IMG/VR virus record: IMGVR_UViG_2721755498_000005
Strand: one strand, 5' to 3'
DNA length: 36,800 bases
Source: a virus
Taxonomy: Duplodnaviria > Heunggongvirae > Uroviricota > Caudoviricetes
A program made the translations under genes and the position numbers. This document shows positions 4,748 through 29,001 of this stretch, one piece after another. The notes below the pieces were generated by a model that was given only the letters and a program-made list of their open reading frames with translations, had not been told where the DNA came from and ran no database searches. Each line of letters starts with the position of its first letter. Position 1 is the first letter of the stretch.

Positions 4748-7700
4748 GCGTCGTATCCCCCCTGATCGCTGTAGTTACTCCTGGCTTTTGCCTTCAGCCT
4801 GCGTTCACGTTCATCAAGCTGGCGTGCCACCTCCCGCGCAATATCCTGCGCACTTTGTCCTGGCTGCGTCTGAATGATGATCTGCGTCGGTGCCTCAATC
4901 CGTTGAACGAGCGGCACAGTGGCTGCGCGACTCACAATTGCTTCTCCACCTTTCGCGGGAAGTGCCAAAGGGTGCAACGGTGGAAGCTCTGCTGGCGCGG
5001 CAGCAACGCCCATCATTCCGGCAACAACGGCAGCCAGTGCAGCTGTATTTCTCCGGCTGGTCACATTTGCCGGGCCGTTAACAATTTCCGGCCCGTTTTC
5101 ACCGACGATGCCAAACTGCCCGCGCGGGATATACCCGCCGCTGTCATACATCCCCGCAAAGCCATATCCCCATGATGGAAAACCACCCGATGGCATCATC
5201 ACTTTACCGTCTGCATTCACCGTCGCAGGTTGCTGACGCGTCACGCTTTCCGGCAGTTTTGCCTTTGCGGCCTCTTTACTGACAATGCCGAGCTTCTCCA
5301 GCAACCAGGAAACGCCGGATTTCAGGGAGTCCAGCGGATGCATGACCATATTCAGCCCTTCCGCCAGTGCCTCCCCGAATCGCCGCCCCATTGCCGCTGC
5401 GCTCTGCAGTTCGGCAGAGGTCGACTTAACGGGCGTCAGCAGATCAGTAAACCAGCCCCACAGCGCCTGCACTTTGTCGCCAATCCACTGGAACACGGGC
5501 TTAAGCGGTTCGAACGCTGCACTGATGGGACCTGCCGCCGCTTTGAATCCTTCCACCACGCCACCGAGAAATGCGGTGATGGGTTGCCAGTATTTCCAGA
5601 CAACCAGCGCCACGCCCGCCAGTGCAGTAACCACAAGACCTATCGGACTGAGCAGAGCACCTAACAGACCAGATATGGCATACAGGGCAACGCGCAGCAT
5701 CGCCAGTGGACCAGATGCCAGTACTCGCAGCACCGTGCCTGCGGCGGCCAGTCCACCGCGCAGTACCGCCAGAGGATTCATAAACATCACAGCAACAGCA
5801 CGTAAACCGGATAATCCAGACCGCAAAAGTGCAACCGGCGCACCTGCTACAGTTTTCAGGACATTTCCCGTCAGTGATGCCGTGCGGCGCAAAGACGACA
5901 ACGGCGCAGTAAGTAAACCTGCGGCGTTGCCCGATGAAGCAAGCCCGCGTCGCAGCAGTGCCAGTGGTGCGCCAGCCAGCCAGGACAACGCGCTGCTGGT
6001 TCGAGTTACTGCTGCCGTAACGGAAGATAACGTTTTGATACCCAGCACAGAGAATCCCAGACGGATCACTGCCAGCGGCCCCAGCACTGCAGCCAGCGCC
6101 ACCGCTAAGGTGCCGAGGCCGACGGTAACCGCAGCCACAACAGCCGATGCTTTCATCAGTGTGCCTGTCAGTTCCGGGTTAGCTTCCACCCAGCGACGCA
6201 ACGCCCCCGTGACGCTTTTCACCGTGTACAGAATATCCATCAGCGGCTGGCGCAGCGTTTCGCCCAGGCTGCTGAAGGTGTTCTGCGCTCCGGTTTTGAC
6301 CAGCAACCACTGCGCAGAAAGTGAATCCTTGTTAATGTCGGATTCTTTCTGCATGGAGCCGAGCGCATCATTGCCCGCTGTCAGTTTTAACTGACGCTGC
6401 AGTTCCGGCAGGTTGTTTGCCAGTTTCGCCGCGTCATCGCCAAACTCTTTACCAAACAACATAGTCATGGCAGACAGGCGCTTGTCCTGCGGCAGCGCGT
6501 TTACCTTCTCCAGCACGCGCTGGATGGTTCCCATCGCATCCTTCGTCATCTGCTTTTCAATCACTTCAGGATTGAGTTTCAGCAGATTCATCCCTTCAAA
6601 GAAACTTTTGCTTTGCATGGTGGCAATGGACAATTCACGCACCATCGCGTTTGCTGCACTGGCTGCAACCTCTGGCGCAGCGCCCAGTGTCAGGAAGGTG
6701 GAACCCAGCGCCGCCGCTTTACGATAATCCAGACGGTCAGCCACACCGCCCAGACGTTGCATCACATCAATGATGTCTGCCCCTTTCGACATGGCGTTAT
6801 CATCCAGATAGTTCAGCGCATCACCGAGCTGTTCAATATTGCGGGTGGGGATTTTGTAGAGCTGGGCGATTTTCCCCAGACTTTCTGACAGTTCATCCGC
6901 TGGCAGCTCAAAGGCTGTTGCCGCCTTTGCTGCCGTACTGGCGAAGGCCAGCAGGTCACGTTTCTGATCTTCCCAACTGTCGTCAGGGTTTGCGACGTTC
7001 ATGCGCGCACCACCTTCAACCAGTGCAGCGAAATCCACCGCACCGTTTTCCATCGGCAACTGTTCGCTGGCAGCCTTGATGGCATCCTGCATTTCATAAA
7101 AACGTGCAGTGCGGTTGCCATTATCGTCACGCAGACCATTGACCTGCTTTGCCACACCTTTCATGGCATCTTCCATGCTGGTATAGCTTTTTACTGCCGC
7201 CATCACTGGTGCGCCCATTGCCAGCCCTGCAGCCGTGGTGGTGGCTCCGGCACCTGCAATACGATCACGCACCTCCAGCGAACGGGCATAACTGGCACGC
7301 GCTGCATTCATCCTGCGCTGAGCTTCCCCCAGTCGCTTCAGCCGCGCCTCCTGTTTCGAAAGTTCCTGGTTATAACGTGATGTTTCACGGGCTAAACGGG
7401 CAGTTGCACCCGCATCGTCTTTCGCAGAAATTCCCGCCCGGTACAGTTCAGCACGCACAAGCGCCGTCTGCTGCTGCAGCTTTTTCTGGCGTTCTTCCAG
7501 GCGCTGAACAGCCAGCCGTTGACGGCCCAGAGCAACAACCTGACGTTGCGAAGGCGGCCCCATCGCTCCCAGTTCCTGACTGAGCAAATTTGCACGCTGG
7601 CGGGCATAGTTCAGCCTGTCGCCTAATTTCTGATTTTCTGCCTGCAGCTTTCGGAAGCTGTCCAGACTGCTCCCGGCCTGATCAAGCTGCTTTATTGCAT

Positions 7701-7821
7701 CGCGGGATTTTTTGACAGCAGCAGCCAGTTCTCTTGAACTGGCCTGCGCAGATCGAAATGGGCGGGTGAGCTTGTCAACCGCATTAAGAATGACCTGCAG
7801 ACGCAGGTTGTTATCACTCAT
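4744..7821 (-). CDS. T: Tail tape measure protein gpT
   Basis: 1025 aa Ala/Leu-rich coiled-coil and hydrophobic segments; ATG overlaps the E' stop. Confidence 0.8.
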   Translation of the reverse strand: MSDNNLRLQVILNAVDKLTRPFRSAQASSRELAAAVKKSRDAIKQLDQAGSSLDSFRKLQAENQKLGDRLNYARQRANLLSQELGAMGPPSQRQVVALGRQRLAVQRLEERQKKLQQQTALVRAELYRAGISAKDDAGATARLARETSRYNQELSKQEARLKRLGEAQRRMNAARASYARSLEVRDRIAGAGATTTAAGLAMGAPVMAAVKSYTSMEDAMKGVAKQVNGLRDDNGNRTARFYEMQDAIKAASEQLPMENGAVDFAALVEGGARMNVANPDDSWEDQKRDLLAFASTAAKAATAFELPADELSESLGKIAQLYKIPTRNIEQLGDALNYLDDNAMSKGADIIDVMQRLGGVADRLDYRKAAALGSTFLTLGAAPEVAASAANAMVRELSIATMQSKSFFEGMNLLKLNPEVIEKQMTKDAMGTIQRVLEKVNALPQDKRLSAMTMLFGKEFGDDAAKLANNLPELQRQLKLTAGNDALGSMQKESDINKDSLSAQWLLVKTGAQNTFSSLGETLRQPLMDILYTVKSVTGALRRWVEANPELTGTLMKASAVVAAVTVGLGTLAVALAAVLGPLAVIRLGFSVLGIKTLSSVTAAVTRTSSALSWLAGAPLALLRRGLASSGNAAGLLTAPLSSLRRTASLTGNVLKTVAGAPVALLRSGLSGLRAVAVMFMNPLAVLRGGLAAAGTVLRVLASGPLAMLRVALYAISGLLGALLSPIGLVVTALAGVALVVWKYWQPITAFLGGVVEGFKAAAGPISAAFEPLKPVFQWIGDKVQALWGWFTDLLTPVKSTSAELQSAAAMGRRFGEALAEGLNMVMHPLDSLKSGVSWLLEKLGIVSKEAAKAKLPESVTRQQPATVNADGKVMMPSGGFPSWGYGFAGMYDSGGYIPRGQFGIVGENGPEIVNGPANVTSRRNTAALAAVVAGMMGVAAAPAELPPLHPLALPAKGGEAIVSRAATVPLVQRIEAPTQIIIQTQPGQSAQDIAREVARQLDERERRLKAKARSNYSDQGGYDA

Positions 7822-8250
7822 CGTTGGCCCCGCTTCTCTGAATCGCTTTATACCGCCATTCCAGCACTTCGGTCAGCGGCATAACGTCAGTAACGGATGG
7901 CGGCCAGTGAAAAATGGTGGCGATATCTGCCACCAGATCGTCAACCGTCAGGCTGTCGGTAAACCGGCAAGCACCGACTTCTTCAACAAAAAAGTGACAA
8001 CCTCAACCGACATGGCAGTGAGATCTGCCGGGTCCATCTCTGCAATTTCCTGTGCAGTCAGTGCCGGACTGGAGATGCGGGGGATCACGATCATCATCGC
8101 GTTTACATCCATATCCATAATGGCCTGCAGGCGTGTACCGCGCAGCGCACCGGACTGCGGTTTACGCAGCACAATTTCGGTGATTTCTGTTTTACCGCGC
8201 TTGATGGGGGTATCCAGTTGAATGGTCTTTTCAGTCTGCTTATCGCTCAT
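7814..8250 (-). CDS. E: Tail assembly chaperone gpE and frameshift product gpE+E'
   Basis: gpE ORF 7948..8250; slippery heptamer TTTTTTG on the minus strand (complement of about 7984-7990) near the end of E; the -1 frame continues to a TGA at 7814 overlapping the T start. Confidence 0.7.
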
Positions 8251-25715: not shown

Positions 25716-25746
25716 ACAAAAAGGCCATTAAATGGCCTTTTTGTTT
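25716..25746. terminator. Bidirectional rho-independent terminator between Q and the retron RT
   Basis: aaaaaggccatt aa atggccttttt hairpin with an A-run on one side and a T-run on the other; overlaps the RT stop codon. Confidence 0.5.
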
Positions 25747-26702
25747 TTAGGAAAAAGAACACTTAGATCAACCCCATATGCTTCAGACATTTTATTTGAG
25801 AAAGTCATCAATTTTCTATAGTTTTTCTTGTCTACACTTTTAACAAACGCAATAAGTCCTTTAACATGTTCGAAATCAGAATTTCTTTTTACCGCCAGAT
25901 AATGGATCTTACTTCTAATTTCGCGATAACGTATTCTGCCAACTCCAACATTATCAATAGATAAAACGAGCCCAGTAACCTCCTTCCTTGCTTTGGGGCC
26001 ATGAATCGCAACTTTATTATAATTAACCTTCAAAGATTCACTTGGTATTATAGAGCATACAAATGACTTAGCTTTAAGTATTTTTTTTAAAGATTGAGCA
26101 GATAAAGTCAAATCATCGGCATATCGAGTAAATACGATCCCCTTACTACCTGCATATCCATGTATTCTATAATCTAATTTAGTTAAAACAAGATTCGCAA
26201 TCTTTGGAGAAGATGGTGCACCTTGAGGTAGCGAACCATTAAATGAACACAATCTTGCTAAAGCATTAGAAATAGTAGAGTTATACCCCAGAGAATGAAA
26301 AACAGTATAGATTTTCTCTATCAGAATAGTATTAAAACAATCTTCTAAATCAATATTTAATACATAGTTAGCTCCTACATGTGGGCTGGCATTATTTAAT
26401 ATTGATTGCCCTTTTTCAAAGCCTTTGGAAAATGGGGATGAATGTAACTTATCAAGGATGTTTCTTAACACCCAAGCTTGCAATGCCTTCAGCTCACGTG
26501 ATGGCTGTGAAATGATGCGGGATCTCTTGCCATCTCTTTTTGGCAACGAATAAACCTTATAGTATTTGTCAGCACGATAAATGTACAACCGGAGTATGTC
26601 TACTGATAAACGCATTTCTCTAGACATATCCTCTAAAGAGGACATAACAGGCAATCCAAGATTGCGTAAGCGAAAAACCTGAGATGGTGTTGCGGAAGTC
26701 AT
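25728..26702 (-). CDS. Retron-type reverse transcriptase
   Basis: 324 aa; RT motifs NIDLEDCF and FTRYADDLTLS (YxDD); size like retron RTs; ATG directly after the a2 repeat of the msr-msd. Confidence 0.85.
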   Translation of the reverse strand: MTSATPSQVFRLRNLGLPVMSSLEDMSREMRLSVDILRLYIYRADKYYKVYSLPKRDGKRSRIISQPSRELKALQAWVLRNILDKLHSSPFSKGFEKGQSILNNASPHVGANYVLNIDLEDCFNTILIEKIYTVFHSLGYNSTISNALARLCSFNGSLPQGAPSSPKIANLVLTKLDYRIHGYAGSKGIVFTRYADDLTLSAQSLKKILKAKSFVCSIIPSESLKVNYNKVAIHGPKARKEVTGLVLSIDNVGVGRIRYREIRSKIHYLAVKRNSDFEHVKGLIAFVKSVDKKNYRKLMTFSNKMSEAYGVDLSVLFPKNKKAI

Positions 26703-26866
26703 GAGCGCACCCTTACGTCATAAAAATCAGATTCCGAAGTGAAAGGAGAACATCGGGAGATGTTCTCCTTTCAATGAGGGAACTGGTAAAACTTCAGATT
26801 GTATGTAGGACAGCGAAACACTGTCCAGTGAACTTCCGGAGAAGCCACTCGCTAAGGGTGCGCAAA
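26703..26866 (-). ncRNA. Retron msr-msd non-coding RNA (template for multicopy single-stranded DNA)
   Basis: Flanking 11-13 bp inverted repeats (26705..26717 gcgcacccttacg and 26851..26863 cgtaagggtgcgc) in a1/a2 arrangement; perfect 14 bp stem with 4 nt loop at 26741..26772; minus-strand 5' end TGCGCACCCTTAGCGAG and 3' end GACGTAAGGGTGCGC match my recollection of Ec86. Confidence 0.65.
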
Positions 26867-27763
26867 ACGCATCCTATCATAGTGGAGTATTGTTTTACCA
26901 CGATTTTCGAAGTTCATCATATCCAGTCGTAGATTGTCCAAAGCCTTTCGATCAAAATGCTCAAGAACGTATTGCATACCAATTTCTGTAATATGGTATC
27001 CTTGAACTGAACGCCTAATTATTGACTCTTTAATCAAGCTTGAAATAACAGACTTAACGATAATTTCACAAAGAATAGCATCTTTCTTAGTCACCAAATG
27101 TAATAGCTCATATAGAAGTATATTATCTATACCATCCATCAAATATATACATGGCAGTATAAAACGCCGAGCGTGAAGAATATTATCTATTGAGTGATTA
27201 ACTGGGTTATTTTTTTTGATGTCATTAATACTTTTTATAATTCTATTATAAAAAGCTTTACCTGTACTCAAGCTTTCAAGAGTCGACAAATCTCCTCGCA
27301 ATACTGCACCGCTATTAGCACGCCGAAGCAGTTTTATAGGCCCATAATTAAGAAAGCTTTTTTTAAGTTTGAATTTGTCATCCTGAAGACATATCATTTT
27401 TTTGCACAGTTTTTCATTATTTGAAAATGCGCCCAATTCAGCGAAAGACCCTGGGCTTTCAGGAATAATAATAATAACATCGACTGAATCAGCTAAAATA
27501 TTCTCCAAACTTAAAAGACTATGCTGACCTTGTCCATACAAAAGCTCATCAAACAACTCCTCAGGATAGAATATTTCTATTTTGGGATGTGTTTCCAACA
27601 CTCTTTTAACTTTATTTCTACAAAAAAACGGATCATTCAAATCGCCCCCGCAAAGGAAAACAGTAACTTTATTTTTATTTTTCTGTTGAAAAAGCCGACT
27701 TTTAATTAAATTTGCCAGATTTTGCTTCTGCAACTCCGGAATAGTTTTCTTTTTCATATCCAC
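26852..27763 (-). CDS. Retron effector, nucleoside 2-deoxyribosyltransferase-like (NDT-like) protein
   Basis: 303 aa AT-rich ORF immediately upstream of the msr-msd; motif IIIIPESPGSFAELGAF resembles the NDT catalytic-glutamate motif; stop codon lies inside the a1 repeat. Confidence 0.7.
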   Translation of the reverse strand: MDMKKKTIPELQKQNLANLIKSRLFQQKNKNKVTVFLCGGDLNDPFFCRNKVKRVLETHPKIEIFYPEELFDELLYGQGQHSLLSLENILADSVDVIIIIPESPGSFAELGAFSNNEKLCKKMICLQDDKFKLKKSFLNYGPIKLLRRANSGAVLRGDLSTLESLSTGKAFYNRIIKSINDIKKNNPVNHSIDNILHARRFILPCIYLMDGIDNILLYELLHLVTKKDAILCEIIVKSVISSLIKESIIRRSVQGYHITEIGMQYVLEHFDRKALDNLRLDMMNFENRGKTILHYDRMRFAHP

Positions 27764-27823
27764 TTTTCCTCAGAATGATCCCATCTTTTATACAACATTC
27801 AAATCTGAGTTTCCACCCGCTGC

Positions 27824-27847
27824 GCGCGCTCGTATCCCCGCCACGCC
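27824..27847. other. Putative cos site (cohesive-end region)
   Basis: Minus-strand reading GGCGTGGCGGGGATACGAG matches the first 13 nt of the 186/P2 19-nt cohesive end as I recall it; lies in a GC-rich 244 bp intergenic region. Confidence 0.35.
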
Positions 27848-28007
27848 TGCCCGCTTTATGTAGCGGTTTTCATGCGCCTGCATGACATAAGCAAAATCCC
27901 GCCACTCCTGGCGGGCCTCAGCTAAAACGATCCTCAAACGATCATGCGGATTCATGCGGCATAGACATGCACAATCTCCAAAGCGGGCATCGAGACTTTT
28001 TGGAAAC

Positions 28008-28619
28008 CTACGTAACCACAGTTAATGTGTGCATCCTGTCTCGAATTGCATCACACGTCTCATCAAAAAGCTTGGTGATGGTTGTATGGTTCAACTCCGC
28101 CTCTTTCCAATAATTTTGCCCGTCAAATTCTGGATCGCTATGCTTAAACGATATTGACTCTGAAAGGCATTCCTTCCGGAAACGGTCCAAGATTATATAA
28201 ACCTCTGGTGAGATGAACGGTTTGTTAGATTCAACACTTGTAACAAAAGTGTTAAATGCATCAGAAAAAACTTTCAACCTTCTAAATTTTCTCTCTTCAA
28301 ATGGTTCGTTGGGGTCAACATGATCCAGCGCAGGCCTCAGCTTAAGCACGCTTTCTCTGGTTTCAAACATCGAATTCCAAATGAGACTATATGCTGATAA
28401 CTCCTTATCAAAATACGCTTTCGTTACATAAACAGAATTGTCTAACTTAGCCTTTATTCTTTCATTAGTTGCACTCAGTTGTGATTGAAATTCAGCAATA
28501 TCTTTGTTTAGCCGCGACTTATATCTTTCTAAATAAACTTTCCCGATCCAAACAAATATGCCAGATGCAACAAAAGACACCCCACCCAACGAAGCCAGAA
28601 CTTTAAAGACTAAATCCAT
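28008..28619 (-). CDS. Hypothetical membrane-anchored protein (accessory region next to cos)
   Basis: 203 aa ORF; ATG with GGTGGGGG RBS; N-terminal TM helix then a predicted coiled-coil/soluble domain; no family recognised. Confidence 0.5.
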   Translation of the reverse strand: MDLVFKVLASLGGVSFVASGIFVWIGKVYLERYKSRLNKDIAEFQSQLSATNERIKAKLDNSVYVTKAYFDKELSAYSLIWNSMFETRESVLKLRPALDHVDPNEPFEERKFRRLKVFSDAFNTFVTSVESNKPFISPEVYIILDRFRKECLSESISFKHSDPEFDGQNYWKEAELNHTTITKLFDETCDAIRDRMHTLTVVT

Positions 28620-28667
28620 TGCGCCCCCACCTGCAAAAATAGTATTCCATTATAAGCTAATACATTT

Positions 28668-28883
28668 TTAATCAAACAGGGGATAATTCGCGTCAACCTC
28701 ATCACTTCTCTGCTCTACCCTAGTGACTTCCATCAAAAACCCCAGGCCGTCATATAGCGAAACGGGGAATTCCAGCTCAAGCCAGAAGCAGTCTTCATAG
28801 ATGCGGCCCAACCAAAAACCTCCGCCACACTCCTTTGGGCGTTGAAAGAAGACCCAGTCGCCAAGGGTTAAACGTTCCAGCAC
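28668..28883 (-). CDS. Hypothetical small protein (doubtful)
   Basis: 71 aa ORF with GTG start and weak RBS, 48 bp upstream of the 203 aa gene; may be a remnant. Confidence 0.25.
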   Translation of the reverse strand: MLERLTLGDWVFFQRPKECGGGFWLGRIYEDCFWLELEFPVSLYDGLGFLMEVTRVEQRSDEVDANYPLFD

Positions 28884-29001
28884 CTAGCCCCGATAAATAA
28901 TCTGGTGATTACTGTCTTTTTTACCCATGGCTAACGCCTCGCTACTCTCGTTGTTCAACCTTGCTGACGTCAGATTCAAGTTCTTACATCAGGAACGTTC
29001 C

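Follow-up and report, generated by a model that had tools for sequence, protein, structure and literature searches.

Genes and Features at the Locus

The window, meaning the whole stretch of 36,800 nucleotides from IMG/VR record IMGVR_UViG_2721755498_000005 that was analyzed, is most of a P2-like prophage located between rybB and rcdA. Within it, an effector gene, a noncoding RNA (ncRNA) gene and a reverse transcriptase (RT) gene follow one another on the minus strand, with the coordinates and assignments given below.

26852..27763, minus strand: NDT-like/winged-helix effector, 303 aa from a GTG start (PADLOC, NCBIfam and PDB matches)
26705..26864, minus strand: retron ncRNA gene (msr-msd), running from T26864 and a1 to the end of a2 (Ec86 alignment, fold and covariation)
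26853..26863, minus strand: inverted repeat a1, GCGCACCCUUA, the 5' arm of helix P1 (11 nt, 100% complementary)
26852, minus strand: predicted branching (priming) G, directly 3' of a1 and the third base of the effector TAG
26705..26715, minus strand: inverted repeat a2, UAAGGGUGCGC, the 3' arm of helix P1
25728..26702, minus strand: retron reverse transcriptase, 324 aa (PADLOC RT_II-A, Pfam RVT_1 and NCBIfam matches)

The reference for this locus is Ec86, the Retron-Eco1 of E. coli B/BL21, which is classified as type II-A3 with an RT of clade 9 (Mestre et al. 2020, PMC7736814). The RT of the window matches PADLOC RT_II-A (4.9e-123) and Pfam RVT_1, as well as the NCBIfam model retron_St85_RT with 272 bits against a cut-off of 235. 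Its best relative in the PDB is the Ec86 RT (5.4e-124), followed by the next retron RT at 1.9e-34, and the motifs typical of retron RTs are visible in the alignment: NAxxH (as NNASPH), YADD (as RYADD) and VTG (as VTGLV).

Regarding the effector, it matches PADLOC NDT_II-A (2.6e-97), NCBIfam STM3845_fam (186 bits; cut-off 100) and, over its full length, the Ec86 effector in the PDB (7v9x_C, 5e-92). The effector has no match in the Pfam copy that was searched, and its homologues carry PF28093 (STM3845) in the contig look-up. In the Ec86 effector, E106 has been described as the catalytic residue and E65, D69, S100, F128, K131, S133 and N136 as forming the ATP pocket; the equivalents of all eight are conserved here. 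RefSeq starts this protein at the ATG at 27757, resulting in 301 aa, and annotates both flanking proteins, leaving the ncRNA unannotated. Both open reading frames, RT and effector, are intact.

The RT reading frame begins 149 nt past the end of the effector frame, with its ATG at 26702, and the minus strand between the genes reads TGCGCACCCTTAGCGAG ... GACGTAAGGGTGCGC-TC-ATG. Direct reading thus confirms the start and end sequences that an earlier inspection of the letters (the sequence-only reading) had given for the interval. The repeats a1 (26863-26853) and a2 (26705-26715) are a perfect complement over 11 nt, for which simple arithmetic gives a chance expectation of about 0.015 per 351-nt region, and T26864 has no pairing partner. 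The effector stop codon TAG occupies 26854-26852 and overlaps a1, which doubles as coding sequence for the C-terminal Ala-His-Pro of the effector and the first two bases of its stop codon.

The same reading had set the stop codon within a 13-nt a1 (26851..26863) and the RT start codon immediately after an a2 of 26705..26717. The overlap and the close spacing hold, but the exact repeat is 11 nt long and two bases (26704 and 26703) separate a2 from the ATG. Beyond the unpaired G26852, the minimum free energy (MFE) fold does contain two extra pairs, 26851-26716 and 26850-26717.

Structure and Covariation of the ncRNA

Folding of the minus-strand RNA yields helix P1, formed by a1 and a2, two msr hairpins and a long msd stem, located as follows.

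26827..26849, minus strand: msr stem-loop P2 of the MFE fold (arms 26849-26841 and 26836-26827)
26808..26826, minus strand: msr stem-loop P3, 8 bp with a UUU loop (arms 26826-26819 and 26815-26808)
26728..26785, minus strand: msd stem P4, a 15-bp core with an outer imperfect helix

The 171-nt stretch that was folded has an MFE of -73.7 kcal/mol, compared to -39.7 +/- 4.0 kcal/mol in 200 dinucleotide shuffles (z = -8.5). The repeat and hairpin feature is therefore confirmed, as none of the 200 shuffles folds as well. The core of P4 has 15 bp, pairing 26773-26759 with 26740-26754 around the loop UCCC, and extends to imperfect arms of 27 nt (26785-26759 with 26754-26728). The helices P1 to P4 of the Eco1 ncRNA have been obtained by chemical mapping (PMC8989520), and the RNA of the window has the same architecture, when the two secondary structures are compared.

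For the covariation analysis, 14 distinct ncRNAs of the clade were collected by RT-alignment scans and contig look-ups, coming from E. coli, Erwinia, Pantoea, other prophage contigs, Bowmanella and Rheinheimera. As each species is represented there by a single genome, the contig scan yielded no more than two loci. All 14 relatives keep the gene order effector-ncRNA-RT seen in the window, and the closest RT homologue (P0002) has 75% identity.

RNAalifold applied to 11 relatives returned P1, both msr hairpins and the long msd stem; compensatory changes were seen at 23 of 48 pairs, and the consensus structure was unchanged with 14 sequences. In this structure, 95.8% of the cells are paired, compared to approximately 40% in slid controls, where the pairing partners are shifted by 1-3 columns, and the 23 pairs with double changes stand against 4-7 in the same controls. 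None of 500 shuffles reached the pair counts observed. Compensatory changes occur in all four helices: three pairs in P1, two of five pairs of the P2 consensus helix with both sides changed, four of eight pairs in P3, where 100% of the cells are paired, and 14 of 22 pairs in P4.

The changes in P1 concern a repeat that is also translated. In L010-L013, the GCG of a1 becomes GUG (Ala to Val) with the matching change in a2, while L023 carries the synonymous GCA, again covarying with a2. Bowmanella (CACCUUUA) provides a further case of a coding a1 that covaries with a2. As for the priming site, G26852 is unpaired in both the MFE and the consensus folds and lies inside the motif UAGCGAG, which is invariant across the 14 relatives, including Ec86. 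By its position and the homology with Ec86, it is predicted to be the branching G.

The identification of the interval as an msr-msd is borne out by the flanking genes, the homology with the Ec86 ncRNA, which has been defined by experiment, the fold and the covariation. It had also been proposed that the long hairpin is the msd stem and that the short hairpins (26807..26826 and 26831..26846) belong to the msr. The fold is in agreement with both short intervals, the long and the short hairpins match P4 and P2/P3 of Ec86, respectively, and the covariation agrees in both cases. These observations support the conclusion that a retron ncRNA gene is present in the interval and was correctly recognized from the sequence alone; retrons are bacterial anti-phage systems that produce short single-stranded DNA.

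Transcription of the Unit

Two sites flanking the unit are of interest for its transcription.

27787..27815, minus strand: promoter-like site TGGAAA-17-TATAAA, agreeing with nine of 12 consensus positions (a consensus match only)
25718..25737, minus strand: palindrome GGCCAT-UUA-AUGGCC with a U5 tail, resembling a terminator and overlapping the RT stop codon TAA (25730-25728)

The promoter-like site (27815-27787) is the best of its region and lies within the approximately 60 nt of cargo-specific sequence that precede the effector; it is unlisted in a stricter promoter scan. The palindrome, flanked by an A-run and a T-run, is located between the convergent RT and portal genes and is absent from the listing of the consensus terminator scan. 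The palindrome looks like a bidirectional terminator common to the RT and portal genes, and Ec86 has a comparable hairpin after its RT in the same arrangement.

As proposed by the sequence-only reading, the tight packing may reflect one effector-ncRNA-RT transcript that acts as both mRNA and RT template. This is plausible and the more likely reading, because a promoter-like site is present upstream, no convincing internal promoter was found, a terminator-like hairpin follows the RT, and, in published work, the effector-ncRNA-RT unit has been cloned together with the native promoter that precedes the effector and expressed from it. A search for an internal sigma-70 promoter covered the final 300 nt of the effector gene, where nothing reached nine of 12 consensus positions. 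A promoter-like site within the msr (26827..26798) agrees with 10 of 12 positions and was rejected, as its transcript would begin inside the ncRNA and lose a1. The region also holds fewer promoter-like matches than its shuffles, for which this site was likewise discounted.

In classic descriptions of retrons, a promoter is located directly before the msr. The ncRNA could thus be a separate short transcript whose promoter lies within the 3' end of the effector gene and has TATGAT (26882-26877) as its -10 element, in which case the effector mRNA and the RT template would be different molecules. This hexamer (26877-26882, minus strand) lies 11 nt upstream of a1, and TATGAT or TATGNT is found at a near-fixed distance before a1 in all 14 relatives, including the distant ones from Bowmanella and Rheinheimera. 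However, this conservation can be explained by protein coding, since the hexamer encodes a conserved Tyr-Asp/Gly/Ala. Moreover, it has no acceptable -35 element 15-19 nt upstream and no TG extension, and the published expression of the whole unit from a promoter upstream of the effector also speaks for the single transcript. A separate transcript is therefore considered rather unlikely, although it deserves more weight than the other alternatives discussed below.

Overlap of the Stop Codon with a1 and Possible Translational Coupling

The effector stop codon is a TAG made of the last two bases of a1 and the unpaired G in 12 of the 14 loci, and the effector C-terminal ..AHP* is conserved among the relatives. 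In the two exceptions, the stop codon lies 8 nt before a1 (L005, from Rheinheimera) or at the 5' edge of a1 (L038), and the RNA sequence is intact in both. On the other side of the ncRNA, the gap between a2 and the RT ATG ranges from 1 to 9 nt in the family, with the short version in the window and in L036 and L037. The AAGGG within a2 precedes the RT ATG by 7 nt in the window and in these two nearest relatives, and by approximately 12 nt in Ec86. By its spacing in the window, it is a plausible candidate for the Shine-Dalgarno sequence of the RT.

The overlap of the stop codon belongs to Ec86 itself, as the effector of the latter ends in AHP* with its TAG inside a1. The tight gene overlaps are consequently a family trait and not a peculiarity of the window locus, and they have already been published for Retron-Eco11. 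The overlap in this interval is thus a published trait of the clade rather than a discovery.

For the overlap, the best explanation is that of a by-product: the effector frame stays open into the ncRNA as far as the invariant UAG, and the AHP is dictated by a1. Considering that L005 and L038 shift the stop codon yet keep the RNA, the RNA seems to be what is selected, rather than the position of the stop.

A functional role of the overlap can also be imagined, where the UAG would be both the toxin stop and the priming site, a2 would be the ribosome-binding site, and the competition between ribosomes and P1 folding would fix the ratio of toxin, RT and msDNA. In such a translational switch, P1 would hide the RT Shine-Dalgarno sequence, a ribosome stopping in a1 would melt P1, and translation of the toxin and RT would exclude the folding of the msDNA template. 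The position of the stop at a1 and the priming G in 12 of the 14 relatives fits such a switch, as does the 7-nt spacing of AAGGG in the window, L036 and L037, where no other Shine-Dalgarno-like sequence precedes the RT ATG. However, the two loci with a displaced stop keep the RNA, the distance from a2 to the ATG varies within the family and places AAGGG farther away in Ec86, and, as published, engineered Ec86 ncRNA and RT function when separately expressed. Both the switch and the setting of the ratio by ribosomes are thus improbable, and the by-product explanation is preferred.

Predicted msDNA and Probable Mode of Action

Taking the genes, the RNA and their location together, the locus is read as a three-part type II-A3 retron defense system that a P2-like E. 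coli prophage beside rybB and rcdA carries as cargo in its gpA-gpQ hotspot, with a probability of about 0.9. An ordinary intergenic structure (terminator, attenuator or REP-like element) or a decayed retron without msDNA is very improbable: the U-rich run AUUUUUA (26727-26721) after the msd stem resembles a terminator and RefSeq has no RNA feature in the interval, but the RNA is homologous base for base to the functional Ec86 ncRNA, four helices show compensatory changes, the priming motif is invariant, RT and effector are intact with their catalytic residues kept, and a working terminator at this point would sever a2 and the RT from the rest.

26717..26798, minus strand: predicted msd template, approximately 82 nt, with boundaries transferred from the Ec86 msd by alignment

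We infer that the msd is copied from C26717 towards U26798, with both ends extrapolated from Ec86, whose own msd length has been revised in the literature from 86 to 85 nt. The predicted msDNA would start at its 5' end with GTCATAAAAATC... and end with ...ACTTCAG(A). Its fold, at -19.1 kcal/mol (z = -7.0), is that of a stable DNA hairpin.

Defense by Ec86 depends on a CCTGG Dcm motif in its msd stem, and Dcm methylation by the phage is the trigger. A search of the whole window ncRNA found neither CCWGG nor GATC; the position of the Ec86 CCAGG site is occupied by UCGGA, and the CCTGG Dcm motif is also absent from several relatives. The trigger is thus probably other than Dcm methylation, since CCWGG is absent, and the sensing step cannot simply be transferred from Ec86, as the CCTGG motif is missing. 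If so, the missing Dcm motif would imply that the locus responds to a signal as yet undescribed for type II-A3 retrons.

Other methylation sites were considered as replacements and dropped. A GANTC or GATC site in place of the Dcm site was abandoned, since the window ncRNA has no GATC. A bulge keeps the GAAUC of the outer msd helix from forming a symmetric duplex site, and the GATC found in L022 is not at the position of the Ec86 CCWGG.

The following mode of action is likely, in which msDNA production, the shape of the transcript and the defense function are those expected from homology with Ec86. The effector-ncRNA-RT unit would be transcribed from a promoter approximately 30-60 nt upstream of the effector, and the transcript would end at the hairpin that overlaps the RT stop codon. 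Its ncRNA portion would adopt the fold described above, with P1 made of a1 and a2, a pair of msr hairpins and the long msd stem. The RT would then bind the msr, and the 2'-OH of G26852 would prime the copying of the msd from C26717 to near U26798. After removal of the template by RNase H1, a branched msDNA of approximately 82 nt with a DNA stem-loop would be obtained.

The NDT-like N-glycosidase effector would be bound and kept inactive by the RT-msDNA; in Ec86, the complex of RT, msDNA and effector forms filaments. A phage-induced change in the msDNA would free the effector, resulting in the hydrolysis of NAD(P)+ or nucleosides and in the abortion of the infection.

Genomic Context and Distribution

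When the whole window was searched with Rfam at gathering thresholds, only RybB was found, as a full-length sRNA at 2700-2778 on the plus strand, beside the end of the prophage (105 bits, E = 7e-21). A permissive Rfam search of 26650-26920 returned only chance matches to miRNA and scaRNA families, far below threshold; thus, Rfam evidently has no model for the retron ncRNA. The site between rybB and rcdA is also that of the defective prophage bearing Ec86 in E. coli B.

Identical copies of the retron are present in three of 5,426 complete E. coli genomes and in three IMG/VR contigs. The retron was unmatched in a blastn search of the phage GenBank collection. In the part of the supplementary text of a retron census that was available (PMC10849725), the window ncRNA, the RT accession and the RT N-terminus do not appear.

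The retron occupies the gpA-gpQ hotspot of the prophage, which is known in P2 to carry defense systems, including retrons (PMC9122126). When the window is compared to the Ec86 locus, the homology of the phage backbone stops at 27822 and resumes in the 3' part of the cassette and the portal gene.

An element of approximately 150 nt at 27822-27972, containing GGCGTGGCGGGGATACGAG, is found with 87-93% identity in many P2-like phages and at the Ec86 locus, its carriers including Fels-2, SopEphi and phages of Klebsiella and Yersinia. Presumably, it is the cos region. This element splits the hotspot into two cargo slots, with the retron between the element and the portal gene.

The other slot (27973-28926) has two minus-strand reading frames, 28008..28619 and 28668..28883, neither of which has a match in Pfam, PADLOC or NCBIfam. 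The slot differs from that of strain KFu015, where a DUF2971 gene sits, and its DNA is present in 51 of the 5,426 E. coli genomes, where the annotations read hypothetical or, strangely, 'valyl-tRNA synthetase'. Its reading frames are candidates for a defense or accessory gene.

Elsewhere in the prophage, the segment 11536-12095 is inverted relative to KFu015 (88% identity), with collinear surroundings. Its counterpart in that strain lies over tail-fibre-assembly genes, with a recombinase gene approximately 550 nt further on. The segment may be an invertible tail-fibre region related to host range; alternatively, two opposed tail-fibre-assembly genes could merely be paralogous.

Among the relatives, L038 (1437-5182) has an Ec86-like retron outside any prophage, with ThsA (Macro) and ThsB (TIR), the genes of a Thoeris system, directly after it. 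The retron and the Thoeris genes make up a small defense island.

Comparison with Ec86 and Other Retrons

The comparison with Ec86 is based on the BL21(DE3) locus and on the version from an intact prophage, and the Ec86 ncRNA sequence used in the literature has an exact match in the former. In RefSeq, the Ec86 RT of BL21(DE3) (NC_012971.2, L002) is annotated from an internal start (6985..7872, 295 aa). In another strain, identical DNA is annotated from 6910, giving 320 aa, which is the published length; the annotation is thus inconsistent.

Both loci have the gene order effector-ncRNA-RT, with identities of 59% between the RTs and 50% between the effectors. The repeats a1 and a2 and the UAGCGAG priming motif are identical, and the intergenic RNAs align end to end and share the P1-P4 architecture. 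The effectors are alike in having NDT-like and wHTH parts with E106 and the ATP-pocket residues conserved, and in terminating in ..AHP* with the TAG inside a1. Both retrons are also found in the slot between the conserved cos-proximal element and the portal gene Q, in a P2-like prophage at the rybB/rcdA site.

Besides these similarities, the P2 hairpin of the msr is shorter in the window than in Ec86 and the sequence of the msd stem is different, with a predicted msd of approximately 82 nt compared to 85-86 nt. The gap from a2 to the RT ATG is 2 nt instead of 6-7 nt, and the CCWGG Dcm motif of the Ec86 msd stem is absent.

The locus is a natural and intact sister of Ec86, the structurally best understood retron and the one most widely applied in genome editing. 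A comparison of the two is therefore useful for asking which msDNA features the effector reads and how the specificity for the trigger evolves, and the locus could provide an alternative pair of RT and ncRNA for editing.

Retron-Eco11 is of type III-A3, with an RT also of clade 9, and is likened here to the window locus from its description. Its ncRNA gene extends into both flanking genes on the same strand, the effector at its 3' end and the RT at its 5' end, and its effector stop codon lies inside the inverted repeats (PMC12746101). In contrast, its effector is PRTase-like, whereas that of the window is NDT-like, its inverted repeats span 25 bp and contain bulged adenosines, and it is triggered by phage helicases (PMC12746101).

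As in the window, an NDT-like effector of the STM3845 family accompanies a retron RT in Retron-Sen2 (St85), of type II-A1, and the NCBIfam models named after St85 match both proteins of the window above their cut-offs. However, Retron-Sen2 belongs to another RT clade and ncRNA type (IA/IIA1; Mestre et al., PMC7736814), and the St85-like Vm85 has the order msr-msd, effector and RT (PMC11701397), unlike the effector-ncRNA-RT of the window. With its NDT-like effector, Ec86-type ncRNA, RT closest to that of Ec86 and gene order, the locus has the features of type II-A3 and, as judged from these, is a new, uncharacterized member of this type and a close relative of Ec86.
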